Shown piece by piece: positions 10,484 to 28,679 of a stretch of DNA of 64,000 bases. The stretch is from Bacteroidales bacterium. Its GTDB lineage: Bacteria; Bacteroidota; Bacteroidia; Bacteroidales; ML635J-15. The notes beneath the pieces are model-generated. The model saw only the letters and a list, made by a program, of their open reading frames with translations, made no database searches and was not told where the DNA came from. Numbering within the stretch: position 1 is the stretch's first letter; each line of letters begins with the position of its first letter. The stretch is taken from positions 3,769,342 through 3,833,341 of the forward strand of contig OY781043.1 in NCBI GenBank assembly GCA_963676165.1. The letters are read 5' to 3'. The position numbers and the translations under genes are program-made.

Positions 10484-10616
10484 TAAATCTAACTTTTTCA
10501 CCTTTTACAATCTCATTTATTGGCATTTAGCTTTCCATTTAATTACGTTCATATTCGGTAAATACACACACAAACTACAATAGTTTATGAGGAAAATATC
10601 ATTTGAGATCTAATTT

Positions 10617-11846: not shown

Positions 11847-12039
11847 AACTCATGCTTATAGCTGATAAACAGCAGATTGCTTTTGTTGTTTCAAATATTC
11901 ATGAAAAATACGAAATATTACAAAAAGAAAGCATGTGGTTTGAGCAAAGATCACTTGTTCAGTGTTCAAAAACAGGAAAATAAACGCAAAATTAAACGGT
12001 AAGAAGGGAGTAAAAAGACATAAAAACGGAATCTTTCCT

Positions 12040-12047
12040 TAACTTTG
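12040..12047 (+). promoter_or_regulatory. -7 promoter box (TAACTTTG)
   Basis: TAnnTTTG match 33 nt upstream of the ATG at 12080. Confidence 0.45.
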
Positions 12048-12079
12048 CAACTTATTTATTGTATTACTGTTTAAGTTTT

Positions 12080-13213
12080 ATGATTATGGAACTCAATAAA
12101 AATAATGTAAGCAAAGCTTTGGCAGAAGTGCTTTATCCAGGCAATGCCAAAGATATTATTAGCCTGAGAATGGTGGAAAATCTTCAAATCGAAGGAAAAA
12201 AAGTTAGTTTCGATTTGGTTTTTGAAAAAGATACTGATCCTTTCATCGCATCAATGAAAAAAGCCTGTGTTAAAATACTTGAGTCTGCTTTCGGTGAAGA
12301 CAAGATCGAAATCAAAGGAAATATCCAAGCAAAAAGCAGAGCCATTACTAAGGAAGCTGAAATTCATACAGGACAAGCTGAAACCGGAATTGGCAAAGTA
12401 AAAAATCTGATTGCTGTTGCATCAGGAAAAGGTGGCGTTGGAAAATCTACAGTTTCCGTCAACATGGCAATTGCTTTAGCTCAACATGGTTACAAGGTTG
12501 GTTTACTCGATGCAGACATCTTTGGTCCTTCAATTCCTAAAATGTTTGGTCTTGAAGATGAAAAACCTCGTGGCAAACAAGAAAATGGGAAAGAATGGAT
12601 TTTGCCATTGGAAAAATACGGAGTAAAAATGCTTTCTGTTGGTTTCTTTGTGGATCCTGATTCTGCGCTTGTATGGCGTGGTGCTATGGCTACCAATGCA
12701 TTGAAACAACTAATTAACGATGCAGATTGGGGCGAATTGGATTATTTACTTTTCGATTTACCTCCAGGAACAAGTGATATTCATTTGACATTGGTACAAA
12801 CCGTTCCTGTAACTGGTGCTGTAATTGTTTCTACACCTCAAGATGTTGCCCTTGCTGATGCTCGTAAAGGAATATCCATGTTTAAAACGAAAGGAATTGA
12901 AGTACCAATTCTTGGTTTGGTGGAAAATATGGCTTGGTTTACTCCAGAAGAATTACCTGATAACAAATATTATCTTTTCGGTAAAGATGGTTGTAAAAAA
13001 CTTTCTGCTGAAACAAATATTCCATTGTTGGGACAAATTCCTCTCGTTCAAAGCATTCGCGAAGGCGGTGACGAAGGAAAACCTGCTAGTATGCAATTAA
13101 GTTCTCTCACAGGAAAAGCATTTGAAACTGCTGCAATTGCAATGATTGAACAGGTTGATGTGAGAAATAAAACAATGGATCCAACAAAAATTGTTGAAAT
13201 CAAACACAAATAA
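12080..13213 (+). CDS. apbC: Mrp/NBP35 (ApbC) family iron-sulfur cluster carrier ATPase
   Basis: N-terminal DUF59-like domain, deviant Walker A ASGKGGVGKST, and DLPPGTSD. The start is moved from TTG 12059 to ATG 12080. Confidence 0.9.
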   Translation: MIMELNKNNVSKALAEVLYPGNAKDIISLRMVENLQIEGKKVSFDLVFEKDTDPFIASMKKACVKILESAFGEDKIEIKGNIQAKSRAITKEAEIHTGQAETGIGKVKNLIAVASGKGGVGKSTVSVNMAIALAQHGYKVGLLDADIFGPSIPKMFGLEDEKPRGKQENGKEWILPLEKYGVKMLSVGFFVDPDSALVWRGAMATNALKQLINDADWGELDYLLFDLPPGTSDIHLTLVQTVPVTGAVIVSTPQDVALADARKGISMFKTKGIEVPILGLVENMAWFTPEELPDNKYYLFGKDGCKKLSAETNIPLLGQIPLVQSIREGGDEGKPASMQLSSLTGKAFETAAIAMIEQVDVRNKTMDPTKIVEIKHK

Positions 13214-13492: not shown

Positions 13493-14721
13493 TGCATCCT
13501 GTTCTATACATATCTTATGATGGAATGACTGATTCTTTGGGTCAATCTCAAGTAATTCCATACCTGATTGAACTTAGCAAAACTGGTTTGGAATTTCATA
13601 TTATCTCAGCAGAAAAACCATCAAACTTTCAAGCCAATAAATCACAAATATCTGCTTTACTCAAAGCCCACAATATTCATTGGCATCCGGTACAATACAC
13701 AAAAAAGCCTCCGCTAATTTCTACAATGAAAGATATCCGTGCAATGAAAAACTTAGCAATTAAATTGCACAAAACACACCAGTTTCATGCGACACACTGC
13801 CGAAGCTACATCAGTGCTTTTGTCGGAATGGCACTTAAAAAGAAATTTCATGTTCCTTTCCTTTTTGATATGCGAGGTTTTTATGCTGATGAAAGAGTGG
13901 ATGGAGGCTTATGGAATCAGTCAAATCCTGTTTACCGCCAAGTTTACAAGTTTTTTAAGCGGAAAGAAAAAGTCTTTATGAATACTTGCGATCAGCTTAT
14001 TTCTTTGACAGAAAATGGGAAGCAATGTATTGCATCTTGGGAATTTGAGCATCTTAAAACTGATGACATAACTGTCATTCCATGTTGTGCAGATTTAGAT
14101 CATTTCAATCCCAAAAAAGTGAATCCAACTCAAAGAAAAGAGATTCAATCATCATTGAATCTCTCCGATGATGATTTTGTGCTGTCTTATTTAGGATCTA
14201 TAGGAACGTGGTATTTACCTGAGGAAATGCTTGATTTTTTTGCTGTTTTATTAAAAAATCGCCCGGAAAGTAAGTTTCTTATTTTGACACGAGACAATCC
14301 GGATAGTATGCGTGAAATGGCCAAACAGAAATCTATTCCTGAAGAGAAACTCATATTCCGACCAGCAAGTAGAGATGAAGTTCCTGCATTGATCTCTTTA
14401 TCCGATTTATCCATCTTTTTTATTAAACCTGTCTTTTCAAAAAAAGCTTCCTCGCCAACAAAACTTGCAGAACTATTAGGAATGGGTGTCCCTGTAATAT
14501 GCAATGGCAATGTGGGCGATATTGATAACATCATCGAAAAATATCAAACAGGTTTGGTAATCCGTGAGTTTGATACCGAGACATATCAAAAAGTTGTTGA
14601 CAAATTACCAGAAATCTTACAAATTGATTCTCAGCACTTACGTTCTGTTGCAGACGAGTATTTTTCACTTACTGTTGGTACAAAATCTTACCAAAAAGCC
14701 TATGCAAAAATCTTAAAATGA
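13492..14721 (+). CDS. glycosyltransferase (GT-B fold, GT4-like)
   Basis: 409 aa. The C-terminal nucleotide-sugar binding region (SSPTKLAELLGMGVPVICNGNVGD) is typical of GT1/GT4 enzymes. Confidence 0.75.
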   Translation: MHPVLYISYDGMTDSLGQSQVIPYLIELSKTGLEFHIISAEKPSNFQANKSQISALLKAHNIHWHPVQYTKKPPLISTMKDIRAMKNLAIKLHKTHQFHATHCRSYISAFVGMALKKKFHVPFLFDMRGFYADERVDGGLWNQSNPVYRQVYKFFKRKEKVFMNTCDQLISLTENGKQCIASWEFEHLKTDDITVIPCCADLDHFNPKKVNPTQRKEIQSSLNLSDDDFVLSYLGSIGTWYLPEEMLDFFAVLLKNRPESKFLILTRDNPDSMREMAKQKSIPEEKLIFRPASRDEVPALISLSDLSIFFIKPVFSKKASSPTKLAELLGMGVPVICNGNVGDIDNIIEKYQTGLVIREFDTETYQKVVDKLPEILQIDSQHLRSVADEYFSLTVGTKSYQKAYAKILK

Positions 14722-14792
14722 TCAATACTTCATCTTAAGTTTATTTGTTTATTGCCAATCTGCTTCTATCTTTGAACGATAATTCACAAAAC

Positions 14793-15890
14793 ATGCGAAA
14801 AAAAGTACTGCTTTGCCTAGTTCATCATCGCCCGGATCGTTCGCCCGGACAACGATTTCGAATTGAGCAATTTCTACCAGCGCTTGAGAGAGATGCTTGG
14901 GAAATTCAGTATTCTAACATCCTAAATGAAAAGGATGATTTAACCTTTTATGCATCAGGACATTATTGGGGTAAGTTTCGCATCATGGTGAAAAGTTTTT
15001 TTCATCGTTTAAAAGATATTAAGCGTGCAAAACATGCCGATGTTGTTTTCATTTATCGTGAAGCTTTTATGATGGGGACAAGTTACATTGAAAAGCGCTT
15101 GTCAAAAATTCATACTCCGCTTGTTTTTGACTTTGATGATAGCATTTGGCTCAATGATACTTCAGTTGGGAATCAGAACCTCAGTTGGCTTAAAAAGCCA
15201 GAAAAAACAGGAGATATCTGCAGGTACTCAGATCATGTTATGGTTGGGAACGCTTATTTGGCTGATTATGCCAAAAAATTCAATTCCAACACACATGTTT
15301 TTCCAACAGTGATTGATACAAATTATCATAAGCCGAATGAAAAACGAACTGAAAATCAGAAAATTTGCATTGGCTGGACAGGAACTCAGCCCACGATAAA
15401 GCACTTTGAAACCATTCTCCCTGTGCTTAAAAAATTACATGCTTCTTTCCCTGACAAGTTATGTTTCCGTATGGTTGTAAACTTTCCATATGATTGCAGT
15501 AGCATACCATTGGAGGTTATACAATGGGAGAAAGCAAGTGAAATTGAAACCCTTCAACAATTTGATATCGGAATAATGCCACTTCCAGACAACCAATGGA
15601 CACGTGGAAAATGTGGTTTCAAAGGATTGCAGTATATGTCCCTTGAAATTCCAACAATTATGTCACCAGTTGGTGTAAACACAGACATTATTCGCCATGG
15701 TGAAAATGGATACCTTGCTGATTGTGAGGATACTTGGCTTAAAACACTCACTCAACTTATTGAGAACAAAAGTGAGAGAGAACGCATAGGAAAAGCAGGC
15801 AGACAAACCGTTGAGAAATATTACTCAAGACATGCTTGGGAAAATAAATGGGTGGAATTTTTTAATCATGTGAGTTCAGATTTTCATTAG
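14793..15890 (+). CDS. glycosyltransferase (GT-B fold, GT1/GT4-like)
   Basis: GFKGLQYMSLEIPTIMSPVGVNTDIIRHGENGYL motif. The start is moved to ATG 14793 (MRKKVLLCLVHH). The last 36 codons lie inside the 135-bp repeat. Confidence 0.75.
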   Translation: MRKKVLLCLVHHRPDRSPGQRFRIEQFLPALERDAWEIQYSNILNEKDDLTFYASGHYWGKFRIMVKSFFHRLKDIKRAKHADVVFIYREAFMMGTSYIEKRLSKIHTPLVFDFDDSIWLNDTSVGNQNLSWLKKPEKTGDICRYSDHVMVGNAYLADYAKKFNSNTHVFPTVIDTNYHKPNEKRTENQKICIGWTGTQPTIKHFETILPVLKKLHASFPDKLCFRMVVNFPYDCSSIPLEVIQWEKASEIETLQQFDIGIMPLPDNQWTRGKCGFKGLQYMSLEIPTIMSPVGVNTDIIRHGENGYLADCEDTWLKTLTQLIENKSERERIGKAGRQTVEKYYSRHAWENKWVEFFNHVSSDFH

Positions 15891-15915
15891 TAAGTGAACC
15901 CTAAAAGCCAAAGTG
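15781..15915. repeat. 135-bp direct repeat, left copy (candidate attL)
   Basis: Base-for-base identical to 26071-26205. It contains the glycosyltransferase 3' end and stop (15888-15890) and, on the other strand, an ATPase-type 3' end and stop (15887-15889). Confidence 0.95.
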
Positions 15916-15981
15916 TACAGTGGTATGAAAGTTTTCCACTAGGTTAAAACCTAGAAGCTGCCTATTGATTATGCTCTGATT

Positions 15982-18879
15982 TTATTGATAATATTGAGTT
16001 TGACGAGTTGGTTTTGAATCATTAGAGTTGGAATATTGATTTTTTATCTTACCTGTCCCTGTTGAAGCACTGCTTGATGGAGATGTTCTTGAGGGAGAAC
16101 TTACTAGTTTTCTATTTATTCTTCCATTATTTATTATATTTAAGTTTGGTTTTCTTGTTCTTCCTCTACTATTAGAGCCAATTCTTACTGATTTACCTGT
16201 TGTAGTACTTGTACTTTCTGCAGTAACCCAAGTGTATTGAGGAATATTTGTTCCATTATCTTTCCAATAATTAATACTATGTCCTTCTAAACCTTGAAAA
16301 TCATTACAATCCATTAATCCATCACCCGCAATAACAGGTGTATTTCCTTCTACTCCTCCATATGAATTACCACCTAAAATTTCGTTTAAAAAAAGAATAT
16401 CTCCATCTTCATAACAAATTGTTCCCACATCTACATTGTTTGAATTAAAATCAATACCAGAAACATTGGATAGAAAATAATGTAAATCACCAGCTGTTCT
16501 GGTAAAATCTGCATCAACACTTGGATTTAATGATAAAAATATGCTACCACTATTATATGCGCTTGCATTTGAAATTTTGTTAAACATACACCTTTTTATT
16601 TGTATTTTTTCACCTGGACTTGTTATATTTGCTAATATAATACTTGTTGTTGCAACAAAAGTTTCTCCATCTGCAACATCAACTGTTACAGGAACATCGT
16701 TATCATCAGATATTAGAATTACATTTCTTAGACCTTCTATTCTAATTCCTGAACCTGTATATCCATTAATATTTACATCAGCCATTGCTTTTGTAATTGC
16801 TTCAGTATTTACTAATGAATAGGCTTCTTGAGTGCCAACAAACCCGACAGGACCAAAATTAATTTCATCGCGAGTACCAATAATTTTTAATGCATTTAAG
16901 GCTTCTTCATATCCATCTAAAAATTTCCCAGATTTATCAAGTAGTTTTTGTAATGGGCTACCTGTGAAGGATATTCCCTGAGAAATGCTTATATTATCTA
17001 TATAATCCATATAAGGGATATTTGAATCTGATAGTGTTTTTACATAATTTGAAAGATCATATTCTGGAGATCCTAATATCATTGATTCTATTGTACCATT
17101 TCCAGTAAAATTAAAAACATAATTACATGGTATTGATGTAGTATTTTCATAATTACTTATCTCTGCAAAATCACAAGCAAAATATCCATCCCAAACATAA
17201 TTAGTTACACCAACTTGTCCTATTAAAGGAAAAATTCTATTTCCTGTATGTACATCTATTGATTGATTATTAACATCAAAAATAGCTTCTGAGAAATTAT
17301 TATTATTAGGATTATGAGGAATAGCTTGTCCAGAAATTTCAATACTACTAAAATCAATTATTTTATCTAAATCTGAAAGGGTTGCATCACCTTCATTTGT
17401 ACAGGTTACATTTTGAAAGTTTGAATTAAACTCAAAATCTTCATTATTAGCTAATAAAGCATATAATCTTATTTGATCCTTATTCATTTCTACATTGCTA
17501 AGATTTAAATTCAATTCACCAATATCATAATTAACGGTTAAATTATCATTAGATAATATATTATAACAAAAATAATTCCATTGTGCCGCAGTTGAAATAT
17601 TTATTGTATTATTTGAACTATTTAAAACTAAAACATTATTAGGAGTTGCAATAATTCCATTTAAAATATCTTCAATAAAAACTACATTTATATTTGCTTG
17701 GTAACCATCTGTTTCTTCTTCATATTGATTGTGTCTAGTTTGATTTGCATCATGATCTTCTTTTGCAGTTTGATAATTTTGAGTAGGAGTTTCACCAAAT
17801 AAATCTGAAACTATTTTATCTATAGCTTCTTTCATTGTTGTTAATCTAGCTGAATTTGTATTTAATAAAGACTGTATTTCATTTAATTTAGCTATAATAG
17901 TATCTATATCTTCTTGAGTTCCTCCTGAAGATACAAAATCCTGCATTAACGCATATACTTGATTTAGTTTTGAATTTATACTTGTATTAGCATTATTAAT
18001 TGTATTAAAATCATTAGAAAGTTTGCTATTTATAAGATTTACTATTTCTGAGCCATCTTGTTCTAATACATTTTCTATATAGGATATACTTTCATTTGCA
18101 TCACCAATAATATTAATAATAAGTGTTTTTAAATCTTCAAATCTCTCTAGTTGGTCTTCTGATAAAGTTATTATACCTTCATCGTAAGAAGCTTGTGTAA
18201 ATTCTGCATTGTCTCTTAAAGAATTTAAGTCTGTTATTATATTATTTTCTAATCCCTCAATTGCATCTATATTTTCATCTAATGCTTGAATGGTGGTTAT
18301 TATTTCAGGGAATGTCATTCTTGAATTTAATTCTGTTTTTATTTGTTCCATTTGTGCTTTTATAGAACTAATTGAATTTTCCAAAGAATCTAATCTTGCT
18401 CTATTTTCAGATACAGTAGTTTCGTAAGAATTTAGTATTTCATCTAAACTACCATTATATACAACAAAATATTTATTTTCTGCATTTTTATAACGACTAT
18501 CTGCTAATTCTGATAAATCATCAACTTTTTTAATACCTTCAACTGTTTGAATTTCACCTCTTTCTATTCTAATTTTAACTAATGCTTTCCATCTTTCTAT
18601 TTCACTTTCTAAAATACCAAGTGTATCACTTTCTGGTTGTAATCTATATATTATATTTGAAGAGTTAAGGTCTATACCTTCAATTCTGCCAGAAGCCTCA
18701 TCAGCTCTATATGCAATTTTGTTATAAGCCTCAACTGCATCGGCGATATTATCTTCTGGTTTATAACACCCTGTTGTGTAGATTGCTAATGAAAATAATA
18801 AAGCTATAATAGCATTTTTAGAAAAATGTTTTAAGTGTCTTGCTAAATTTAAAAGTTCTCTTTTTTTATCAGCAGTCAT
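15982..18879 (-). CDS. large coiled-coil surface lipoprotein, function unknown
   Basis: 965 aa with lipobox AIYTTGC and about 350 aa of heptad-like, N/E/I/L-rich sequence. This is followed by a beta-rich N-rich region and a basic S/T/N-rich tail. No family was recognised. Confidence 0.6.
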   Translation of the reverse strand: MTADKKRELLNLARHLKHFSKNAIIALLFSLAIYTTGCYKPEDNIADAVEAYNKIAYRADEASGRIEGIDLNSSNIIYRLQPESDTLGILESEIERWKALVKIRIERGEIQTVEGIKKVDDLSELADSRYKNAENKYFVVYNGSLDEILNSYETTVSENRARLDSLENSISSIKAQMEQIKTELNSRMTFPEIITTIQALDENIDAIEGLENNIITDLNSLRDNAEFTQASYDEGIITLSEDQLERFEDLKTLIINIIGDANESISYIENVLEQDGSEIVNLINSKLSNDFNTINNANTSINSKLNQVYALMQDFVSSGGTQEDIDTIIAKLNEIQSLLNTNSARLTTMKEAIDKIVSDLFGETPTQNYQTAKEDHDANQTRHNQYEEETDGYQANINVVFIEDILNGIIATPNNVLVLNSSNNTINISTAAQWNYFCYNILSNDNLTVNYDIGELNLNLSNVEMNKDQIRLYALLANNEDFEFNSNFQNVTCTNEGDATLSDLDKIIDFSSIEISGQAIPHNPNNNNFSEAIFDVNNQSIDVHTGNRIFPLIGQVGVTNYVWDGYFACDFAEISNYENTTSIPCNYVFNFTGNGTIESMILGSPEYDLSNYVKTLSDSNIPYMDYIDNISISQGISFTGSPLQKLLDKSGKFLDGYEEALNALKIIGTRDEINFGPVGFVGTQEAYSLVNTEAITKAMADVNINGYTGSGIRIEGLRNVILISDDNDVPVTVDVADGETFVATTSIILANITSPGEKIQIKRCMFNKISNASAYNSGSIFLSLNPSVDADFTRTAGDLHYFLSNVSGIDFNSNNVDVGTICYEDGDILFLNEILGGNSYGGVEGNTPVIAGDGLMDCNDFQGLEGHSINYWKDNGTNIPQYTWVTAESTSTTTGKSVRIGSNSRGRTRKPNLNIINNGRINRKLVSSPSRTSPSSSASTGTGKIKNQYSNSNDSKPTRQTQYYQ

Positions 18880-18907
18880 TTTTAAATGAATTTTTATTTT
18901 CTTCTTA

Positions 18908-19222
18908 AATTCTGACTAACGTAAAAATTAGTCTCTGATTTTCAGTTCTTTAAGATTTACTCAAATTTATCATTTTTAGCTCATTTTCGCACCCCATTTT
19001 TACGTTAGCAACAGGATTTAATAAGCTCTGGAAGATTAGATAATTTTATTTGTTTTTCTAATCTGGAAGTGCTTATGTGGCGAATTAGGTATAACGTTGA
19101 GAATATGGGACGTTTGGCATTTCAAAGTACCAACCGTTCAAACCTCTATATATTTAATTGATATACTCATTTTCAAATTTAGCACGATCCGCCAAATGAC
19201 CTATATTTATTGTTGTCCCCAG
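18908..19222. repeat. island intergenic repeat, copy A (intact)
   Basis: Contains a 13-bp perfect inverted repeat (18916-18928 / 18996-19008), a hairpin module (19033-19064) and a distal module (19085-19222). All three are alignable to the interrupted copy at 21632-24802. Confidence 0.6.
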
Positions 19223-20329
19223 TTATTTCTTATTCATTTCATTACTTCCAAATTCAAGTACCCAAGGAACTGCAAGCATATTGTATGCTGTATTAGCTAA
19301 TAGTACTTGAAATTCTTTGTTTCCCGGATGAAATCCAACAAAAGCAATGAAACCCATAGTCCCACCGAAATGTACAATAAAACCACTTTTATATTTTCCC
19401 CAGCCGAGGCAGATATCAGAATAGGTTAATGGTGTTTCTCCAGATATTTGTACTTCATGAGTTTTTTGCATTGCTGATTTTAAAGGGGAGTCTATTATTC
19501 CTACATTAGCCTTAGCATAAACTATTAAATCTTTCATACATGAACGAAGGCCTCCCGAAGTATTAAAAATACAGCTATCATTTCTATACCAGTTTACATT
19601 ATCCATCCCCAAATAACCATTGGCATAATTATCATCAGAGTGCTCTTGATAATTCACACCTGTTCGGGTCATTTTCAATGGCTCAGTGATTTTAATTTTT
19701 AAGAGTTCATTGTAGTTTTGTTCGTAAATATTTTCTAATGCATATCCAAGAATTGCAAAACCAAGCGGTGAATATATAATTGAATCTTTGGCAATGCCTT
19801 CTATTTTATAATTCTTTAGAAATTCATATAATTTAGTCGGTGTGTAATTCAAATAATCCTCTGTTTGTTGAACTGGATTATTCGTATGAATATCTGTTGG
19901 CATATACGGTAAGCCTGAGGAATGAGTAATTAATTGTCTTATTGTAATCTTCCCCGTACTATTTTCAGGAACTATGAATTTATTAGGAAGATATTTCTCA
20001 ATAGGATCATCATACGATAACTTTCCCTCCTCCTCTGCAATTGCAATTAACAAAGCGGTAAAGGATTTTGTAACAGAACCAATTTCAAATTGAGTTTCAA
20101 GGTTAATCTCTTTTTTAGTCCGTGAAGCACTTCCATGGATATAGAGAGAATCAGTATTTCCACTTGCTTTATAATATATTATTCCCAGATAGGTTGAATC
20201 ATTAAGCTTAGATTCCAGATAATCATTAAAATATACAGACGTGATTTCTTCCTTTTGTGGTTTATCATTATTACATGAATATAAAATTACTAAAACCACA
20301 ATAAATAATAAATAGATAATTTTCTTCAT
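19223..20329 (-). CDS. serine hydrolase (class C beta-lactamase / PBP-like family) lipoprotein
   Basis: SxxK motif GSVTKSF and a lipoprotein signal MKKIIYLLFIVVLVILYSC. The start is moved to ATG 20329, because the ORF-track N-terminal extension runs through a repeat copy. Confidence 0.75.
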   Translation of the reverse strand: MKKIIYLLFIVVLVILYSCNNDKPQKEEITSVYFNDYLESKLNDSTYLGIIYYKASGNTDSLYIHGSASRTKKEINLETQFEIGSVTKSFTALLIAIAEEEGKLSYDDPIEKYLPNKFIVPENSTGKITIRQLITHSSGLPYMPTDIHTNNPVQQTEDYLNYTPTKLYEFLKNYKIEGIAKDSIIYSPLGFAILGYALENIYEQNYNELLKIKITEPLKMTRTGVNYQEHSDDNYANGYLGMDNVNWYRNDSCIFNTSGGLRSCMKDLIVYAKANVGIIDSPLKSAMQKTHEVQISGETPLTYSDICLGWGKYKSGFIVHFGGTMGFIAFVGFHPGNKEFQVLLANTAYNMLAVPWVLEFGSNEMNKK

Positions 20330-20505
20330 GCGTTTAAATTTTATCATTATTTCTCCTAATTTATTTTTCTTAACGGATGGCGGTATGAAACGGTTGGGTT
20401 TTCGGAGCTCATAATTATCAACCGAGAAAAAGGCTGGCGCGAGAACCAAAGTTTCGCAAACCACTGAACCCCAACTGTTTTATGACCGCGTGTTGTGGGC
20501 AGTAA
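20330..20505. repeat. island intergenic repeat, copy C (distal module only, inverted)
   Basis: It shares GTTGTGGGCA (20492-20501, reverse complement of TGCCCACAAC at 24674-24683). It also shares TGAAACGGTTGG (20386-20397, reverse complement of the CCAACCGTTCA-type motif at 19130-19140). Confidence 0.45.
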
Positions 20506-21585
20506 TTAGTTCAGCTCAATTGCCTCATTAGTCTTAATTCGATAAACTAATCCATTTTCAAGTCCATAATAATAATATCCATTGAATTCTATAAAAAATG
20601 CTCCATCTGAATCGGAAAGTCCTTTATCTGTTATATTGTCGGTTTTTCCAGTTTCCAAATTTGAATATTTTAACCATTGTGACCAACCAAAATCAATTAA
20701 TAGATTATCAAATATATTTGCAACTGTAGTTGTACTCCAATTAACATTTGTTTCAATATCTACTTTTTTAGTCCAAGTAGAACCGTCATTACTTGTATAC
20801 ACGGAATTTCCTCTTAATTGCATGATGTTTTCAGAATCTTTGAAAATTGCTTGTGTTGATTCAATCTTTTCTAAATATCCGTTGTCATTTATAACATGCG
20901 TTCCATCAGAGGCTAATACATAATCAAAGTCTTTAAATCTTACTAAATCATACTTTTTAGGGCTTTCAAAAAAGGGTAATTCTGTAACATCAATCATCTT
21001 ATCAACAGTACTAGACAATCCACCTGTCTGATTTACCTTTATCCTTAAAATACAATAATAGTCATCTGAATTATCCATACCAGACGCATCCGATTTATCC
21101 CAACCGTGCATAATTACTGAAAAATCATCCCCATGATTAGACATTATATCTGATTCAAACATTCTTGTTTTATAACCTCGTGTTTGATAGTTTGGAATTT
21201 GCATATGCTCAACTTCTGATTTTTGATTACTTCCAATTTCTTGAAAACTAATCGAAATAGAATCCGTACTCCCGGGATTTGGAAAATAATAAATCGGAAT
21301 ACTTAGAATCTCCGCATTCTCAAATATGTATGCTGAACGAGTTTCTACAGATTTTTCTCCTGGAATTATTTGAGTATTAATAATATTGTGGTCTTTGTCA
21401 AAAGTAAAAATCGAATCTTTAGACATCAAAACTAGTTGGTTATTTATCACTGTTCCTGTCGTAAAATTCCGATTAGACATTTCTATGATTTTCTCCCAAC
21501 TATATTCAGAATTTGTATCAATCTCTTCTTTCTCACAGCTAATCAATCCGATTATTGCTATTATAAATAATAATTTCTTAATCAT
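20506..21585 (-). CDS. hypothetical lipoprotein
   Basis: 359 aa with lipobox IGLISC and a beta-rich sequence. No recognisable family. Confidence 0.55.
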   Translation of the reverse strand: MIKKLLFIIAIIGLISCEKEEIDTNSEYSWEKIIEMSNRNFTTGTVINNQLVLMSKDSIFTFDKDHNIINTQIIPGEKSVETRSAYIFENAEILSIPIYYFPNPGSTDSISISFQEIGSNQKSEVEHMQIPNYQTRGYKTRMFESDIMSNHGDDFSVIMHGWDKSDASGMDNSDDYYCILRIKVNQTGGLSSTVDKMIDVTELPFFESPKKYDLVRFKDFDYVLASDGTHVINDNGYLEKIESTQAIFKDSENIMQLRGNSVYTSNDGSTWTKKVDIETNVNWSTTTVANIFDNLLIDFGWSQWLKYSNLETGKTDNITDKGLSDSDGAFFIEFNGYYYYGLENGLVYRIKTNEAIELN

Positions 21586-21650
21586 ATCTATTGGTTTAGT
21601 ATTTAATTTCTAATTTCAACGATGCACGCCTCCCTTTATTCTGACTAACG

Positions 21651-23030
21651 TTAAAAATTACAATTGGGACTCAACGAGTTACCAACTCCAATTTCTTCCG
21701 GTTTTATGTCAAATTTAGCCATTTGTTTTTTAATTCTTTTAGCGATTCCCATTTTTCTTTTTTGATCAAGGAATAAATATTCTGTTGGGGGATTATATGG
21801 CACTTGCTTTACGACCATTGTCCAAATTATAGTGGCAAGCTTTCGAGCAGTCGCACTTACTGCTGCTTGTCGTCCTTTCCTATAAGCAATTCGATTAAAG
21901 AAATCAGACATATGAGTGTCTTTTAAATTCCCGATTGCATTTGCTGAATGCCGGAGTGCTATTTTTAATCTGCTACTCCCCTTGGGGATTCGATTACTCA
22001 ATACTTTTCCTCCTGATATTTTATTGTTCGGGGCAAGCCGTAACCATGAACAAAACTCCTTTGCTGTTTTAAACTTTTTAAATCCATCAATTCCAACCTC
22101 ACTCATTATTGCCATTACGGTTGCATGACTTACTCCTTCTATTGCCATTAAATCAACGCCTCCAAAATATTGAAAAGCAATTTGATTGAAGTTTTTAATG
22201 TCAATCGCATTTTTATTAATCCGCTTATATGGCTTATCTGTTGTTTTAAGCTTTTGTTTTTCCGGATTCTTTCGTATTTCTTTTTTAATTAATCGCTCAA
22301 TCTCTTTATCGCATGCTTTGATTTTCTTTTGAAAAAATTTGTAGCTGTCAAATTCCTGCTTTAATCCCAATAAATAGTCTTCTCTATTATTTCCATGCAA
22401 AGCTTTGGCTATTTCTTCTTTGGGCTTTCTGCAATTATAGTGTCGGTGTTCTGCTAATGAATATGGATCAAGATTCCCATTACAGATATCAGCAATGATT
22501 TTGATTCCTGTAAGCCCGCAAATATCATTTACCACAACATCTAAACGAAAGTTCAAAAACTTAAGGTATTTTGCCATTTTATGGGAGGCGCTTGATGCTA
22601 AATCAATCCAATTAGCCCTTTGACGGCAATAGGTCCGTAATGTTTCTGTGGTCTCATCGGGAAGAAAGCTACCCGAGAGCAATCCCAAAGAATGAAGTTG
22701 TTGAATCCAACGACTATCTTTTACATCTGTCTTTTTCCCTTTTGCATTTTTTGTAAACTTTCCATTGCACAAAATAACCTCAATGCCATGTTTTTGCAAT
22801 TCCACATATAAATTTTGCCAATAATCACCTGTTGATTCCATTGCTACTGTGGTAATATCATATGAAAGCAACCATTTGCAAAGTTTCACCAGATCTTCAG
22901 CATAAACACCAAATTCTTTTACATCTTCTAATGATTGCCCTACTGCAACAAAATGAGATCTGCTACCCACATCAATACCTGCTGCATTGTGATTTACAAT
23001 CTCCATTTCAATTTTCTTTTTCCTTGCCAT
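21651..23030 (-). CDS. IS110 family transposase (DEDD recombinase)
   Basis: N-terminal RuvC-like DEDD motifs (AAGIDVGSRSHFVAV, AMESTGDYW, DVKDSRWI) and a C-terminal Transposase_20-like HhH region (LMAIEGVSHATVMAIMSEVG ... ISGGK). Confidence 0.9.
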   Translation of the reverse strand: MARKKKIEMEIVNHNAAGIDVGSRSHFVAVGQSLEDVKEFGVYAEDLVKLCKWLLSYDITTVAMESTGDYWQNLYVELQKHGIEVILCNGKFTKNAKGKKTDVKDSRWIQQLHSLGLLSGSFLPDETTETLRTYCRQRANWIDLASSASHKMAKYLKFLNFRLDVVVNDICGLTGIKIIADICNGNLDPYSLAEHRHYNCRKPKEEIAKALHGNNREDYLLGLKQEFDSYKFFQKKIKACDKEIERLIKKEIRKNPEKQKLKTTDKPYKRINKNAIDIKNFNQIAFQYFGGVDLMAIEGVSHATVMAIMSEVGIDGFKKFKTAKEFCSWLRLAPNNKISGGKVLSNRIPKGSSRLKIALRHSANAIGNLKDTHMSDFFNRIAYRKGRQAAVSATARKLATIIWTMVVKQVPYNPPTEYLFLDQKRKMGIAKRIKKQMAKFDIKPEEIGVGNSLSPNCNF

Positions 23031-23245
23031 ATTTTTTCATTTTAATTCGTAAAATGACTCTAAGGAAATGTATCTTTGAATCGAGAAATATTCTGAACGG
23101 GGTCTTCGCTTAATGCGAGCCACCACTGGATTTATCAACAGGCCTCTGAAGTGAACTTTCAGAGGCTTTTTACATTTCAACCAGAATTACGCACGGGCTT
23201 TTTAAGCACCATTTAAAAGATCGGTCATACATAGAGTCGGCATAA
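21656..23245 (-). mobile_element. IS110-family insertion sequence (boundaries approximate)
   Basis: Similarity to copy A stops after ...CTAACGTTAAAAATTA (21660) and resumes near 23248. There are no terminal inverted repeats, as is usual for IS110. It has a long 5' non-coding end and almost no 3' end. Confidence 0.6.
23031..23245 (-). ncRNA. candidate IS110 bridge (guide) RNA in the left non-coding end
   Basis: The roughly 215-nt non-coding leader upstream of the recombinase is where IS110-group elements encode the bridge RNA. It contains a strong 9-bp hairpin (23141-23165). No covariance model was run. Confidence 0.25.
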
Positions 23246-23399
23246 AAATAGCAGAACTTTTCTTTCAAACACCCTCCTTCGTTAGCAAAAGGATTTAATC
23301 TGAGCTGGAGGAATAGATAACTTAAGTTTAAATCTATTTGGGAGGTTCTTATGTGGGGAATGTCTTGTCCTGAAATATGGCTACAGGTTAAACATACGA

Positions 23400-24260
23400 T
23401 TAAGCTCTATATTTAAACACCATATTAGGGGTTTTATAATTCAAAGATAAGTGTAATCTTTTATTATTATATATGCTGATAGCATTTTTAGTAGCGACTT
23501 TAGCATTTTTCAGGCTAAAGAAGCATTGATCGAGATAAAATTCTTCTTTAAGAATTCCATTAACTCTCTCAGCTATAGCATTTTCATAACAATGATTTTC
23601 TTCTGTCATACTTATCTTAATATTTCGTTTTTTTAATTCTTTTACATATTGATTACTACAGTATTGTATTCCACGATCAGAGTGATGTACTAATCCCGCC
23701 GCTGGTCGGGCATGCCACAGAGCCTTTTTGAGGGCTCGTAGGCAGCCCGCCAGCTCCAGTGAGTTGCTAATATCATATCCAACGATTTTCCTGGAATACA
23801 TATCAGTAATAAGTGCTAAATAACAAAAACCATTAACAGTTCTGATGTATGTAATATCAGATACCCAAACTTGATTAGGAGCAGTAACAGTCATGTCTTT
23901 CACAATGTTTTTATACTTGTGAAAACGATGATAAGAGTCTGTAGTTCTGCAGGATGCTTTTTTACGTTTTATAAGCATATTGTTGTCTCTGAGAATATCA
24001 AAAAGCTTATCTCTACCAACTTTAATACATCTCTTTTCAAAAATTGTATTTAGAGATTTATAGAGTTTTTTTGTTCCAACTCTTGGCTGTTCAATCCGTT
24101 CATTTTTCACAAGTTCAAGAACCTGATTTTCGACGTTTTCTCTTTTAAGTTTACGCTCTATAAATTTATAATAAGCATCTCTGTGCATACCAAAGCACTG
24201 GCAGGTTTGCTCAATGCTTGCCTGCCTTGTGTGCTTAATTTTTTCCACTGCCTTAACCAT
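23400..24260 (-). CDS. IS3 transposase OrfB (rve/DDE integrase core)
   Basis: DDE core motifs WVSDITY, HHSDRGIQY and NAIAERVNGILKEE. It lies in the -1 frame relative to OrfA. Confidence 0.9.
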   Translation of the reverse strand: MVKAVEKIKHTRQASIEQTCQCFGMHRDAYYKFIERKLKRENVENQVLELVKNERIEQPRVGTKKLYKSLNTIFEKRCIKVGRDKLFDILRDNNMLIKRKKASCRTTDSYHRFHKYKNIVKDMTVTAPNQVWVSDITYIRTVNGFCYLALITDMYSRKIVGYDISNSLELAGCLRALKKALWHARPAAGLVHHSDRGIQYCSNQYVKELKKRNIKISMTEENHCYENAIAERVNGILKEEFYLDQCFFSLKNAKVATKNAISIYNNKRLHLSLNYKTPNMVFKYRA

Positions 24261-24262
24261 AC

Positions 24263-24628
24263 TTAGATGTTTAAGTTTTTTTTTAGCTCTTCGACATCTT
24301 TATATCCCAGTTTTTCAGCTGCGACTTCAAGATATGAATCAGATGCTAATTTGTCTAAGTCTTTCTTAATCAATAACTCTTTGAGTTTTTTGATTTCTTT
24401 TTGTAAGGCTTTGAGTCTGGTTGTTTCGTCTTGAGTTTCCACTAATATACGAGTATTCATTAAATCTTTCCGGTTGTACTTTTTGATCCATTCGTTTATG
24501 GTAGTTCGGTTAATACCATAAATTTCACCTAGTTTTTTCTTTGAATAATTTCCAGTACTAAGTTCGGCTAAAATTTTCAATTTAAAACCTTCACTGTAAC
24601 GTTTTGTAATCCCATCATTTTTATACAT
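24263..24628 (-). CDS. IS3 transposase OrfA (HTH + leucine zipper)
   Basis: 121 aa with an HTH (LGEIYGINRTTINEWIKKY) and a coiled-coil C-terminus. Confidence 0.9.
   Translation of the reverse strand: MYKNDGITKRYSEGFKLKILAELSTGNYSKKKLGEIYGINRTTINEWIKKYNRKDLMNTRILVETQDETTRLKALQKEIKKLKELLIKKDLDKLASDSYLEVAAEKLGYKDVEELKKNLNI
24276..24284 (-). promoter_or_regulatory. programmed -1 ribosomal frameshift site (A9 run) of IS3
   Basis: The minus strand reads CTA AAA AAA AAC near the OrfA end. The -1 frame from this run is open and continues into OrfB (KKKLKHLSMVK...). Confidence 0.65.
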
Positions 24629-24802
24629 AATTTACTACATATTGTGTAGCCAGATTTTAGGACGGGTCAGAATTGCCCACAACGGTAAATTGTATGAGTA
24701 GTGGCAGATTGCGGGCTACTTTCCTGTCAAACCGCTATGCAGTTTGAGCGGGTTACAAACCTTGATGTTTACCACTTCGCCTGCCATTACTTATACAAAG
24801 TG

Positions 24803-25855
24803 TTACAGGGCGTTTTTATCTATTTCTATTCTATAAATCAAGTCGATAGGTTCAGGATATTTTAACGGAATATATTCTATTGCGAAAGGCAAATTCAATT
24901 CGCAAGCCGTATCAACATCTTTCTCTAACAAATCATTCTCTTGGCAATATTGAATTACCAATTTCATATAATTTCTCAATATCTGCAAGGATGGAAATCT
25001 CCCTTGCTTAGTCAACCACTCCATTAAGTCCGTGTCATTTTTTGAGGCATTACATTTTCGACAAGCCCAAACAAGATTTTCACCAGTGTCTTTCCCTCCT
25101 TTATTTCTTGGAATTATATGGTCAAGTTGTAAATTTCTTGTCTTACCGCAATAAACACAGCACTTGTCAGAATTTAATTTTGATTTCTCATCGTGAAACA
25201 ATGACCCCATATTCATTTGTCCAGACATCAATCCTTTAAATAGTCTTTGTCTGATAGCAAAATGATTTCTATTATATCTTTCAGTGTCATCCTCATTTGC
25301 TCTATATGCCATCGCTAAATTTGAATAAGACCAAAATAAAACGTCCTTAATTTTCTTGTATTCTCTTTTTGTCGATTTTCCGACAAAAGGATTTATTTTA
25401 ACTGGATATTTTGATTTATCTATGGAATACGGAACTCTCGGTTCTTTTCTTCTTTGTTCTCGGTCTTTCTCCGATTCAATTAACTCAGTTGCTATCTCTA
25501 ATCCTATTTCCGTTTCAAACTCAATTTGAGTGCGTGCCCACATTCCAATTTTAATTATCCAATTAATTTCCTCTGATAAATGATTTCCGAATAGTTTTTT
25601 ACAATTCTGGCAGGCAGGAAGTGAATTTTCGGCTGAATCTATCTCACTGAATGGAGTCGAAACACTAAATTTCTTATCGTCTAATTTCTCACCGCATATA
25701 TGACAGATTCCAGAAGTCTTTTCGAAAACCAATTGTTTTTCCGCTTTTCTCAAAGCTTTGGATTTTTCTTTTGACTTTGATTTATGTCGCAATTCACTCA
25801 ATCGTCTGAATTCTGCAAATAAAATTTCTTTGTCATCAATATATGGTAATTCCAT
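24803..25855 (-). CDS. HNH endonuclease with a degenerate N-terminal HNH-like zinc ribbon
   Basis: The C-terminal HNH motif is CVYCG...LQLDHIIPRNKGGKDTGENLVWACRKCNASKND. The N-terminal CHICG...CQNCKK ribbon lacks the catalytic D-H. No RuvC motifs. Confidence 0.8.
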   Translation of the reverse strand: MELPYIDDKEILFAEFRRLSELRHKSKSKEKSKALRKAEKQLVFEKTSGICHICGEKLDDKKFSVSTPFSEIDSAENSLPACQNCKKLFGNHLSEEINWIIKIGMWARTQIEFETEIGLEIATELIESEKDREQRRKEPRVPYSIDKSKYPVKINPFVGKSTKREYKKIKDVLFWSYSNLAMAYRANEDDTERYNRNHFAIRQRLFKGLMSGQMNMGSLFHDEKSKLNSDKCCVYCGKTRNLQLDHIIPRNKGGKDTGENLVWACRKCNASKNDTDLMEWLTKQGRFPSLQILRNYMKLVIQYCQENDLLEKDVDTACELNLPFAIEYIPLKYPEPIDLIYRIEIDKNAL

Positions 25856-25962
25856 CTTGTTGCGTCGTTTGTTTAAATGCCCTGTAACTCGTTTATCCCC
25901 TCACAAAACCTAACGAATACATCCAATATTTGTCATATATCTATAGGTTTGTTTGCTTCCTT

Positions 25963-25970
25963 CAAATATA
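25963..25970 (-). promoter_or_regulatory. -7 promoter box (TATATTTG on minus strand) upstream of the HNH gene
   Basis: TAnnTTTG match about 108 nt upstream of the ATG at 25855. Confidence 0.3.
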
Positions 25971-26070
25971 AACAAAATCGATGAAAAAAGCAATTGCTTA
26001 TTTATTTTATTTGGTAAATTGTCAAAAAGCTTGTTGTAGAATGCTTCTGAAGGCATTGAAAAAAGACTCC

Positions 26071-26205
26071 AACGCATAGGAAAAGCAGGCAGACAAACCG
26101 TTGAGAAATATTACTCAAGACATGCTTGGGAAAATAAATGGGTGGAATTTTTTAATCATGTGAGTTCAGATTTTCATTAGTAAGTGAACCCTAAAAGCCA
26201 AAGTG
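26071..26205. repeat. 135-bp direct repeat, right copy (candidate attR)
   Basis: Identical to 15781-15915. It supplies the last 9 codons and stop of the ATPase gene at 26177-27370. Confidence 0.95.
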
Positions 26206-27370
26206 GAATAATATTTTCTGAACCTATTTCAATATCATCTTTGATAACCCATGAGTTTTCAATATCTTTTATTTGCTGTTTCGACTTATTTTTGCCACCA
26301 ATTTCAAAATGATACTTCTCGTCCAACATAAAATCAACCTGCTTTGAAGCTGAAACTTGATGGTTTTGTTGTAATTGATTGAAAAAGAATGTCTCTCGAA
26401 CATTACCAGTATCCGGTTGCTGATCTGAAAGTGCAAACATCATATTGGAGTTATTGATATAAATTTTCTCAGGTTTATTCAAACTATTAATCCCTCTGTT
26501 TGCTGACTTCAATAAACTCAAAATTTCAGCATCATGCATAAGATACAAATACTGTTTAAGTGTATTTATGCTAATTCCTGTACGACTGCTCAATGAAGTC
26601 ATATTCGGTTTAAAAGGCACACTATTACTAAGAATCTGCAATAGCTTTTTCAAGTAATAAATATTTGCAGAAGGAATATTTATAAATTGAGGAATATCAA
26701 CTTCCAATATTGTTAAAATAACCTCTTCAAGTTTTCTGTGAAACGATATTTTATTTTCAATATAAAAAGGATAATAACCATGTAATAAATAGTCATTAAA
26801 ATATGCTAGTGGTTTAATTTGATTTTTAATTTGGAAGCCAATTTCCACATGATTTTTTAGAATATCTTTTAATTTATAAGATTCAAATTCATAAACACCT
26901 TCAAAGCTTAGATATTCACGAAAAGAAAGTCCTGGCATGTGATATATAACCGCTCTACGACTTAAATCTGCTTTTGCTTTTTGAAAATGTAATAATGACG
27001 AACCTGTAAAAATTATTTTCAGGTCAGAAAAATCATCATATATATTTTTTAACTCAATTGCCCAGTTATTATACCTATGAATTTCATCTAAAGCAAGCAA
27101 TCTACCACCTTTCATATAAAACGCTGAAGCAAGGTCATAAAGACGATTTTCAGTGAAGTACAAATCATCAAGGCTAACATATAGTACATTATCGAGTACT
27201 TTGTATTGCTGCTTTATATACTGAAGAATTAATGTTGTTTTACCAACACCTCTACTCCCCTTAATTCCAATCAAGCGATTTTTCCAATCAATGATATCTT
27301 TAAAATCTCTAACTGTTTCAAGATTTACTTCAGATAACTTAGTATAGAATTTTTGTATTAGCTCATTCAT
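26177..27370 (-). CDS. AAA+ ATPase (AAA_14 + DUF4143-like, COG1373 type)
   Basis: Walker A GSRGVGKTT and Walker B LLALDEIH. Paralogous along its length to 58219-59406 (shared ...KDDIEIG...IPLW..G..Y C-terminus). Confidence 0.8.
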   Translation of the reverse strand: MNELIQKFYTKLSEVNLETVRDFKDIIDWKNRLIGIKGSRGVGKTTLILQYIKQQYKVLDNVLYVSLDDLYFTENRLYDLASAFYMKGGRLLALDEIHRYNNWAIELKNIYDDFSDLKIIFTGSSLLHFQKAKADLSRRAVIYHMPGLSFREYLSFEGVYEFESYKLKDILKNHVEIGFQIKNQIKPLAYFNDYLLHGYYPFYIENKISFHRKLEEVILTILEVDIPQFINIPSANIYYLKKLLQILSNSVPFKPNMTSLSSRTGISINTLKQYLYLMHDAEILSLLKSANRGINSLNKPEKIYINNSNMMFALSDQQPDTGNVRETFFFNQLQQNHQVSASKQVDFMLDEKYHFEIGGKNKSKQQIKDIENSWVIKDDIEIGSENIIPLWLLGFTY

Positions 27371-27458
27371 GATTATTCATTTTAACAAAAATACTAAATT
27401 TATCAATGCATTGACAGTTTTTAAAATATATTTATCAATACGTTGACAGTTTTGCGAC

Positions 27459-28679
27459 TTAAAAACTCCATTTCCCTCGCAAAAAGGCATAAGTTCCACC
27501 GCCACCTTCATTGGTTGGGATATCGCTAAAGAAGCTTTGTGCAGTAATATCAAACATGAAATTTTTGGAAATGGAAAAAGAGCATGCCGGTCCTACATAG
27601 GTGAAATTATTTTGTGGTGAATACATACCTGAGAAACTAAGATTGATTAGAGGCGATATCGGATAGGTAAAATTTGCAAAGAAAGTCCAACGATTATAGG
27701 AAAGATTTTTCGCAGAAATCCGTTGGGTATAAAAATCGGATAAATTGAATGGTCTATCCTTATCAATCGCTGAGTTAAACATTACTTCAGCTTGTATCAT
27801 GCTACCATTTTTAAAGCTATAATCGGATCCTATACTGGCAATAAATGTTCCATTACTATCTGCAGCATACTCAATTGGATGAAAATATGACACTTCTCCT
27901 CTCAAGGCAGCATTCCACAAATTTCCTGACCACCCCATGCCGGCAACATAATCTTCGCTATTAAAAACACCTGCCAAAACTTGGATATCGTATTGCCATT
28001 TATTGAATTGATAGAGTGCTGCAGCAGTCATATTGGTATCTCGATTAACAGCAGCAGCAATTTCTAAGCGAGAGGCATAATTCAGATAGTACTGCGCACG
28101 GAAGGCATCGCTGCCGGGTTTTTCTTCGTAATCGAAATCAAAATACGAATAGGCGTTAAAAATATCGTTGGGATTCCAGACAAAACTCTGTCCCCAATTA
28201 ATACGCTGTCGCCCAGCAGTAATGTCCCATTTTCCTTTTTGAAATTTCAGAAAAGCCCTGTCAATACTGGTATTTAGAAAATAGGAATCTCCTTTTATCA
28301 CATTGTGATTGAGATTGAAAAAGCCAGAATCAAATTCTGTTTCATCCACAAAATTATAAGTGCCTGCAGCTCCTAAAAGTGCATTAAATGGTGGCTGTGA
28401 AAATGTAACCATCTCACCAAAATATAAACGATTTCGTAAAGACACTTGTGCACTAAGGTAATTTTTTGAATAATAGGCAATATCAAAGCGATTGTGAATA
28501 AGGGAATTTGTTATCCACATACTGTCAAGCTCCTGAAAAGAAATCATTTCCATATATTTAACATAGCCATTTACGACCAGTTTATTTTGAGCTTTTCCAC
28601 TCATGCTTATGATGAGTAAAAATGGGATCAATAGGTATAACTTTTTCATAGGTCTCGCTTTGCTATATTTCAATTTCAC
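27459..28679 (-). CDS. outer-membrane beta-barrel protein (last gene of the Lol-like operon)
   Basis: Signal peptide, alternating hydrophobic beta-strand pattern rich in aromatic residues, and a C-terminal ...RGKWSF ending in Phe. Confidence 0.6.
   Translation of the reverse strand: MKLKYSKARPMKKLYLLIPFLLIISMSGKAQNKLVVNGYVKYMEMISFQELDSMWITNSLIHNRFDIAYYSKNYLSAQVSLRNRLYFGEMVTFSQPPFNALLGAAGTYNFVDETEFDSGFFNLNHNVIKGDSYFLNTSIDRAFLKFQKGKWDITAGRQRINWGQSFVWNPNDIFNAYSYFDFDYEEKPGSDAFRAQYYLNYASRLEIAAAVNRDTNMTAAALYQFNKWQYDIQVLAGVFNSEDYVAGMGWSGNLWNAALRGEVSYFHPIEYAADSNGTFIASIGSDYSFKNGSMIQAEVMFNSAIDKDRPFNLSDFYTQRISAKNLSYNRWTFFANFTYPISPLINLSFSGMYSPQNNFTYVGPACSFSISKNFMFDITAQSFFSDIPTNEGGGGTYAFLRGKWSF

Follow-up and report, generated by a model that had tools for sequence, protein, structure and literature searches.

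Candidate integrase-less cassette array between perfect 135-bp direct repeats at the ends of two convergent genes of a Bacteroidales bacterium

Integrons are reported to be rare, or nearly absent, in Bacteroidetes, yet they have been detected in the phylum. In gut Bacteroidales, the recombinase-associated acquired interbacterial defence clusters named rAID-1 carry a XerD-family recombinase at the head of same-strand, low-GC arrays, with intergenic repeats described as 'reminiscent of integrons' (Ross et al. 2019; bioRxiv 10.1101/471110), and they have been characterised until now at the level of gene content only. Other systems to be considered are the attC sites, in clusters or as single copies, that have no integron-integrase with them (CALIN and SALIN), the genomic islands at gene 3' ends together with the cis-mobilizable elements (CIME), and the insertion sequences (IS) of the IS1111-attC group (ISKpn4, ISPst6), which integrate into one end of attC sites, always choosing a single defined position. 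Here we analysed a 64,000-nt stretch (hereafter the window) from a Bacteroidales bacterium (ML635J-15; GCA_963676165.1, contig OY781043.1, 3,769,342-3,833,341 of the forward strand), in which 10,155 bp of inserted DNA, lying between two 135-bp direct repeats (S135), separate a GT4-type glycosyltransferase gene (GT) from an AAA_14/DUF4143 ATPase gene. We suggest, with about even confidence, that the insert is an integrase-less (CALIN-like) cassette array served by a Xer/IntI-like recombinase encoded elsewhere, and that the duplication arose via insertion and exchange. The lack of an integrase would then be explained by a cassette-system recombinase acting in trans; in two comparison loci, designated L125 and L148, recombinases do head related same-strand arrays. 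In the sequences given below, a slash marks a junction or crossover point and a caret an insertion point.

The locus shares features with each of these systems. As in CALIN and SALIN, co-oriented units consist of an open reading frame (ORF) and a structured attC-like site, with a G/TT crossover, R''/R' boxes of the AAC-GTT type and cassette starts complementary to their own R''; no integrase is adjacent, which fits CALIN since the absence of the integrase defines them. A CALIN has at least two attC-type imperfect hairpins conserved in structure rather than in sequence; three such sites were found in the window. Unlike in CALIN and SALIN, however, the recombinases of the relatives lack a full integron-integrase match and read in the same direction as the cassettes, and the place of the classical extrahelical bases is taken by two conserved positions with A opposite C. 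To our knowledge, no CALIN has been reported with a 135-bp duplication on its flanks by which two genes are repaired. With regard to rAID-1, the L125 and L148 arrays have the same layout and belong to the same order, and in the window all the cargo is on the minus strand, with 31.8% GC against about 36% in the flanks and 136-nt sites between the genes. By contrast, the XerD-family recombinase at the array head, present in L125 and L148-L150, is absent from the window, whose organism belongs to an environmental lineage, and none of the interbacterial immunity families that dominate rAID-1 cargo was recognised in the four cargo proteins (Pfam, PHROGs, NCBIfam, PADLOC; remote homology was not explored). 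In 3'-end islands, as here, direct repeats bring a replacement 3' end so that the target stays intact, and a CIME, having no recombination module of its own, relies on a recombinase in trans; the window differs in that the repeat rebuilds two overlapping convergent genes and is perfect over coding sequence, only one edge is recombinase-core-like, and the interior is a cassette array instead of a degraded integrative and conjugative element or prophage. No integrase gene was found next to a possible att site, the 182-nt segment beside the right repeat being non-coding.

There is strong evidence that the contents of the insert correspond to an integron-type cassette array in one orientation. At least three units, named after their products HNH, lipoprotein and beta-lactamase-fold, can be shown to consist of an ORF followed by an attC-like site of about 136 nt. 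Members of the 90% cluster of the HNH protein lie on contigs with entirely different neighbours, and the DNA that they share is a sharply bounded unit of 1.2 kb, with a nucleotide identity of 97.3% in L129, 91% in L130 and 86.5% in L125. Its 5' boundary, GTTACAGGGCATT, 32 nt before the ATG, is constant in four unrelated contexts, and the region of about 130 nt after the stop codon folds as a long imperfect hairpin; in the window, the R'' of this site (GCCCTGTAAC) shares bases with the stop codon and inverts the cassette start exactly. The comparison shows that the HNH cassette has evidently moved between unrelated loci. We also observed that GTTACAGGGCATT at the start and GCCCTGTAAC at or after the stop are kept across L125, L129, L130, L147 and L148, even where the proteins are only 58-63% identical, and that the contigs of L125, L126 and L127 each end 26 nt past the HNH stop, within the attC-like site, as would happen with a site present in several copies in that genome. 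The locus L148 reads on one strand as 377-aa tyrosine recombinase, GmrSD, HNH, ThsB-TIR, SLATT and TIR; its intergenic regions open with the inverse of the start of their own unit (GCACCTAAC for the unit starting GTTAGGTGC) and finish with ..CG/TT and the start of the next unit. The array behind the L148 recombinase (7615-13175) includes defence-type genes (GmrSD, ThsB-like TIR, SLATT, TIR_2), and this cargo echoes reports of anti-phage systems stored in chromosomal integrons.

The structure of the sites was evaluated on an alignment, A1, in which six sites taken from 4 genomes represent three different cassettes: HNH, GmrSD and, from the window, the beta-lactamase-fold cassette. On the named structure 95.6% of the cells were standard pairs, compared to 31-35% when the partner was slid by 1-3 columns, and compensatory changes occurred in 13 of the 19 pairs; none of 500 shuffles reached these values. 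At A1 columns 20/117 and 25/112 (e.g., the window 24792/24695-region), an A is opposite a C on the cassette-sense strand in all six sites. These positions are G-T on the other strand, suggesting that only one strand would fold well, as with the strand selectivity of attC. The covariance model R1, built from A1, scored 131.9 bits on the HNH site and 108.9 bits on the beta-lactamase-fold site, both of which were training sites, and in addition detected a third site of the window that was outside the training set (minus strand, 20365-20501; 44 bits, E 4.9e-9). This site had been predicted beforehand: the unit starting TTGTGGGCAAT, broken by an IS110-family and an IS3-family element, was expected to end with a site ..GCCCACAAC. 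The new site does open with TGCCCACAAC, 4 nt past the stop codon of the lipoprotein ORF, and complements a start at a distance of 4 kb; this R'' is the reverse complement of GTTGTGGGCA, 4 kb distant. The complementarity between start and R'' is 10/10 in the HNH cassette, 10/10 across the 4-kb IS insertion in the lipoprotein cassette and 9/9 in GmrSD. Four more sites were found by R1 in L129 and L147, with 9-10/10 complementarity in three L147 cassettes, and CG/TT terminates every one of the 11 sites. The cassettes start at G/TT, and a start that is the reverse complement (9-10 nt) of its own R'' shows what appears to be the footprint of a circular cassette recombining at G/TT. A simple attC scanner that required R''/R' complementarity failed on the positive controls and was discarded. 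The locus and its relatives thus offer a covariation-supported recombination site of about 136 nt, with a CG/TT end and a rule of start-R'' complementarity, and R1 is able to find new sites; they also show that cassettes with HNH, GmrSD, TIR/SLATT or secreted lipoproteins move among the genomes of environmental Bacteroidales and can come to lie far from any recombinase.

The repeats that flank the array, described as perfect and sharply ended in the initial annotation of this DNA, were confirmed as such: the repeat search gave 135 identities over 135 positions and these two copies only within the 64 kb, and outside the block the in-register identity fell to 25/100 (left) and 27/100 (right). 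A gapped local alignment of the 200-nt flanks was at chance level, as 375 of 500 shuffles reached the same score. The same annotation had noticed, left of the right repeat, a possible remnant of the diverged 3' end of a donor GT; the nucleotide similarity outside the repeat is at chance and, in a tblastn search with 16 GT homologues, no match ran more than 4-7 residues beyond the boundary without meeting a stop, so that this remnant was rejected. The proposal that the repeat restores the 3' ends of two convergent, overlapping genes agrees with our ORF analysis and with the homologous termini of relatives. The GT homologues of L001 and L002 (71% amino acid identity) have their C-terminus at the same alignment position as the GT of the window, while the last 9 codons and stop of the ATPase (PLWLLGFTY), supplied by the right copy, are homologous to the terminus PLWLFGFLY, also followed by a stop, of the relatives in L132 and L133; of this ATPase, 397-aa homologues number in the thousands. 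Since both termini are homologous to the termini of relatives, the 135 bp is, on this comparison, the native sequence of a tail-to-tail gene pair with overlapping ends. The ancestral order, GT and ATPase facing each other, we infer solely from the repeat itself. The perfect identity says that the duplication is probably recent, and the repeats now permit a RecA-mediated loss of the island.

As the earlier description had it, the inserted DNA is co-oriented, foreign-looking and AT-rich: its GC content is 31.8% (28% in the gene of a 965-aa protein), and the flanks, with which a comparison had been proposed, have 36.3% and 35.3%. Terminal inverted repeats were not found between 15916-16015 and 25971-26070 (score 7; shuffle mean 8.6), and 135 bp is far longer than any transposition duplication known to us; the insert, therefore, shows neither the terminal inverted repeats nor the short duplication of fixed length that characterise a transposon. 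The source record appears to be one contig of 3,940,469 bp, which makes a short-read mis-join unlikely and a real structure likely.

On the minus strand, starting from the ATPase side, the right S135 copy is followed by a 182-nt head, the HNH cassette, the IS110 element with the IS3 element inside, the lipoprotein and beta-lactamase-fold cassettes, a mini-IS110, the 965-aa gene, 66 nt, the left S135 copy and the GT in antisense (Table 1). The first 11 nt of the lipoprotein cassette (TTGTGGGCAAT, 24672-24682) lie beyond IS110 and IS3. The HNH protein had been described as a tandem-HNH nuclease; Pfam gives a single HNH domain (residues 233-274), with no clear tandem. The 413-aa mechanical ORF (19223-20464, GTG start), reported as a serine hydrolase, proved over-extended, in that it runs through the site of the lipoprotein cassette (20365-20501) with its first ~39 codons. 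In the light of this overlap, the real start is probably the ATG at 20347, which gives the lipoprotein signal MIKFKRMKKIIYLLFIVVLVILYSC. The attC-like site of this cassette has L-box sequences in common with the GmrSD cassette of L148. The 965-aa unit starts with GTTATACCTA and ends at the tail junction ..CCACTGTA/CACTTTGG; 18 nt past its stop codon, TAGGTTTTAAC is the inverse of the start with one indel. The protein has an N-terminal lipobox-like signal, a coiled coil and a Ser/Thr-rich tail; no Pfam domain was found in it and, among 5.8 billion proteins, only itself matched. For the 182-nt head, no homologue was found in any fetched locus. Neither the head nor S135 nor the 3' region of the 965-aa unit folded into a convincing hairpin, and R1 had no hit in these regions.

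Table 1. Features of the insert, its flanking repeats and the two resident genes.
Feature	Position	Strand	Description
GT4-type glycosyltransferase (GT), resident gene	14745..15890	+	Pfam PF00534/PF13692; stop 15888-15890; likely start ATG 14793
S135, left copy	15781..15915		last 36 GT codons and stop; antisense of last 9 ATPase codons and stop
965-aa orphan unit	15916..18907	-	ORF 15982-18879; R''-like TAGGTTTTAAC at ~15953-15963; no complete attC
Mini-IS110	18908..19085	-	both IS110 ends, interior deleted; after the attC-like site of the beta-lactamase-fold cassette at ..CAACG/TTATACCTAAT^
Beta-lactamase-fold cassette	19086..20364	-	PF00144; start G/TTAAGAAAAAT; likely ORF 19223-20347; attC-like site 19086-19221
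Lipoprotein cassette	20365..21636	-	ORF 20506-21585 (359 aa, lipobox); attC-like site 20365-20501
Full IS110-family element	21637..23360	-	transposase 21651-23030; Pfam PF01548/PF02371; NCBIfam NF033542
IS3-family element	23361..24669	-	orfA 24263-24628, orfB 23400-24260; Pfam rve/HTH_Tnp_1; terminal inverted repeats TG..
HNH cassette	24672..25888	-	start G/TTACAGGGCATT; ORF 24803-25855 (350 aa); attC-like site 24675-24811
Head segment, 182 nt	25889..26070	-	AT-rich palindrome 25972-26015; promoter-like TAnnTTTG-type motif TATATTTG; not attC; non-coding
S135, right copy	26071..26205		completes the ATPase ORF; the GT-derived 108 nt are a non-functional fragment here
AAA_14/DUF4143 ATPase, resident gene	26177..27370	-	Pfam; 29.4% GC

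The way in which the array could have produced the duplication is suggested by the two junctions. On the cassette-sense strand the chromosome reads ..CCTATGCG/TTCTCTC, hence the repeat ends in the CG/TT common to the 11 sites; on the minus strand, the left S135 copy shows ..CCTATGCG/TT followed by GT sequence, and the head junction at the right copy is ..CCTATGCG/TTGGAGTC. The tail junction, ..TTTCATACCACTGTA/CACTTTGG, lies 27 nt after the R''-like TAGGTTTTAAC, inside the expected last attC; it has no core and shares only the 5-nt CCACT with the chromosomal breakpoint (..TTCCACTTTGG). In the scheme that we propose, a multi-cassette circle would be inserted by the recombinase acting in trans at the secondary site GCG/TT, at GT codons 346/347, creating the head junction GCG/TTGGAGTC and depriving GT of its last 36 codons. 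An exchange with an uninterrupted copy of the locus (a sister duplex or incoming DNA) would then occur, homologous on the GT side and illegitimate, by the CCACT microhomology, inside the attC of the last cassette; it would restore GT and, by geometry, duplicate the segment from the insertion point to the illegitimate joint, that is, 135 bp. An equivalent route would be an aberrant excision capturing the 135 bp, followed by re-integration at GCG/TT or by RecA across the repeat. The insertion of integron cassettes is resolved by replication, which would leave one recombinant and one naive sister duplex per cell; the latter would thus supply the partner for the exchange. Cassettes are inserted by IntI1 at genomic G/WT sites, and excision may use nearby genomic sites (bioRxiv 10.1101/2022.09.11.507474). 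A duplication formed in this way would be one means for an array to land in two overlapping gene ends with both genes spared. The attL/attR logic attributed to the repeats in the initial annotation survives in part, as a circle bringing its own 135-bp copy is still viable, while the cassette-array nature of the cargo had been overlooked.

Several observations weigh against this proposal, in which the origin of the 135 bp is a reasoned model only. Of the two edges of the repeat, just one bears CG/TT; at a given junction, CGTT would stand by chance with a probability of about 1/256, but several motifs were looked at, and the base before CG, which is either A or C throughout the 11 attC sites, is G at the head junction. 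The R'' of the beta-lactamase-fold cassette does not match its own start. No recognisable attC was found by R1 in the 182-nt head or in the 965-aa unit, and these two could be an older, unrelated island that was later entered by cassettes. The recombinases of L125 and L148 stay under the cut-off of the integron-integrase model TIGR02249 (195 and 217 bits, respectively, against 265), each matching in two pieces; that of L148 exceeds the cut-off of NF040815, 'tyrosine recombinase/integron integrase' (233 bits against 220). The cognate recombinase of the host genome was not seen, and none is encoded within the window. Neither an empty site nor a circular form was seen, and the order of events is deduced from one sequence.

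A second case of flanking duplication was found in L129 (9326-19397), where the same HNH cassette (99% amino acid identity) is part of an integrase-less array bracketed by a 110-bp direct repeat (91% identity) from the 3' end of a convergent GSCFA gene. The gene-side copy of this repeat is intact, and the displaced copy is decayed, with an in-frame stop; neither edge shows CG/TT, which also counts against our proposal. The last five codons of the GSCFA gene are supplied by array-derived sequence, and the array carries HNH, an S8 peptidase, a DndB-like protein and a Gp49/HTH toxin-antitoxin. It is tempting to consider flanking duplications of about 110-135 bp, taken from the 3' end of a neighbour gene, as a regular by-product of the entry of Bacteroidales arrays into chromosomes, through gene-end insertion and sister-duplex repair, but we regard such a rule as rather unlikely; two loci (a perfect 135 bp in the window and 110 bp at 91% in L129) are too few to establish it. 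If true, it would represent a gene-sparing insertion pathway so far undescribed for integrons, and a systematic duplication would be a new outcome of integron-type recombination. Other repeats were considered and rejected as target duplications: a 412-bp repeat of L129 is now read as a duplicated ORF-less array unit with G/TT on both sides, and those of L137 and L147 are multi-copy array elements. In L147 (6052-14542), five units of 390-450 bp, 92-96% identical, lie between the cassettes; each of them ends in AGTAG/TT and contains a conserved ORF of 36 codons, a hairpin resembling a terminator and a promoter motif of the Bacteroidetes type. The same array also carries ordinary 136-nt sites.

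A recombinase-independent route is a serious rival, and we consider it a minority possibility: the duplication might be due to homology or replication alone, with the cassettes as mere cargo, either by RecA-mediated (Campbell) integration of a circle carrying the 135 bp, or by microhomology-mediated template switching, in which a broken fork copied foreign DNA and came back 135 bp behind the point of breakage. An identity of 135/135 is of sufficient length for RecA, the tail junction has the CCACT microhomology and no core motif, the edges of the L129 repeat lack CG/TT and terminal inverted repeats are absent, all of which can be accommodated in this way. However, such a route leaves unexplained the source of a circle bearing host sequence, as well as why two independent integrase-less HNH arrays both have repeats, and it leaves to coincidence the GCG/TT with a cassette-like start at the head junction. 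That the locus is instead a classical attL/attR island, a CIME-like remnant which lost the integrase beside one repeat and later received cassettes and IS, we judge quite unlikely. Direct repeats that rebuild gene 3' ends are indeed seen in many integrase-driven islands, the two IS elements show remodelling, and the same HNH cassette has, in L125, a tyrosine recombinase immediately upstream; yet no integrase fragment was detected across the window (tblastn with the L125 integrase, E >= 0.44), every IS boundary could be assigned, the interruptions falling at cassette boundaries and none of them in a gene, and a perfect 135-bp identity in a protein-coding target is unexpected for an element travelling from host to host.

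A new kind of element, in which the HNH nuclease nicks the target about 110-135 bp apart and fill-in repair leaves a long target-site duplication, appears very improbable. In the window as in L129, HNH is the first gene within the repeats, which are of similar length (135 and 110 bp), and its product is the sole nuclease of the insert in the window besides the IS transposases. Against this, the same cassette is an ordinary internal unit in L147 and L148 and, in L125, stands beside a recombinase; comparable repeats were not found in any of these three loci, although the contig of L125 stops shortly behind HNH. In L128, a 62% homologue is an ordinary gene of the chromosome, and the examples are two only; moreover, we know of no HNH enzyme that catalyses strand transfer. 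An assembly artefact, by which a free 10.3-kb circle sharing the 135 bp was threaded into the chromosome by the assembler, is extremely improbable: a repeat of about read length is a classic place for a mis-join, but a single contig of this size implies long reads or finishing, and the insert has no replication gene. Even in that case, 135 bp would be common to the circle and the chromosome, so that the biology would barely change.

The intervening 'private repeat family' reported earlier (18908-19085, 21637-21660 and 23278-23360) turned out to be the two ends of one IS110-family element (210 bits against NF033542), present as one full and one mini copy. The full copy interrupts the beginning of the lipoprotein cassette, 9-11 nt 3' of the G/TT at the HNH attC, and both copies have the same orientation, 9-11 nt past G/TT (..CCG/TTGTGGGCAAT^ and ..AACG/TTATACCTAAT^), showing that the element hit the same cassette-boundary position twice. 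The likeness to the IS1111-attC group consists in a DEDD-transposase IS whose copies in the window stand at an equal offset, ..G/TTnnnnnnAAT^; the membership of that group, an IS110-family transposase at a fixed attC position and orientation, corresponds to what we observed, since both copies follow ..G/TT, 8 nt and AAT. The host phylum and the attC family are different. The IS3 element, with a 3-bp target duplication (GAA), is placed in the tip of the IS110 element, within the last few bases of its left end, and for this reason the full IS110 may no longer move.

The absence of an integrase, excisionase or conjugation gene from the insert, noted in the earlier reading, was borne out by a Pfam scan of all ORFs of at least 110 aa, and in the same scan no tyrosine or serine recombinase was found in the whole 64 kb. 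The only DNA enzymes of the insert are the IS110 and IS3 transposases and the one HNH protein. The search for cryptic recombinases that had been recommended, extended to PHROGs, NCBIfam and PADLOC, gave none among the cargo proteins. Rfam gave no match in 14000-28000 and no tRNA was found near the insert; by megablast, the island matched nothing in the plasmid and phage collections, and neither a copy of the 135-bp repeat nor a relative of the HNH protein was found in viral contigs. The flanks hold housekeeping genes (Mfd, MutL, HydF, Mrp, GluRS, PolA and a Lol-type ABC transporter).

Exact-protein look-ups of GT and ATPase returned no empty site. The best GT relatives reach 71% amino acid identity in species genomes and 60% in metagenomes. 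In the closest of them (L001 and L002), the genes that follow GT are homologous to those at 40-42 kb and 59 kb of the window, so that there is no downstream synteny: directly after GT lie the homologues of 40058-41599 (GluRS) and 41602-42057 (cyclophilin), and in L001 only, also that of 59484-61511 (an AMP-binding enzyme). The window segments 15891-40057 (~24 kb) and 42058-59483 (~17 kb) are, accordingly, missing from that locus of the relatives or rearranged. The ATPase relatives at 79-82% are in other genomic contexts; in L132 (1192-11191, ~82% amino acid identity) the ATPase and the 406-aa gene found at 27459-28679 in the window are both kept, with 7.6 kb of other genes between them and no GT, and a second ATPase paralogue lies upstream. 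A second AAA_14 ATPase paralogue is present also in the window (58219-59454), with 42-44% identity to the relatives of the first, and adjoins an IS256/Mutator-family transposase (56777-58000).

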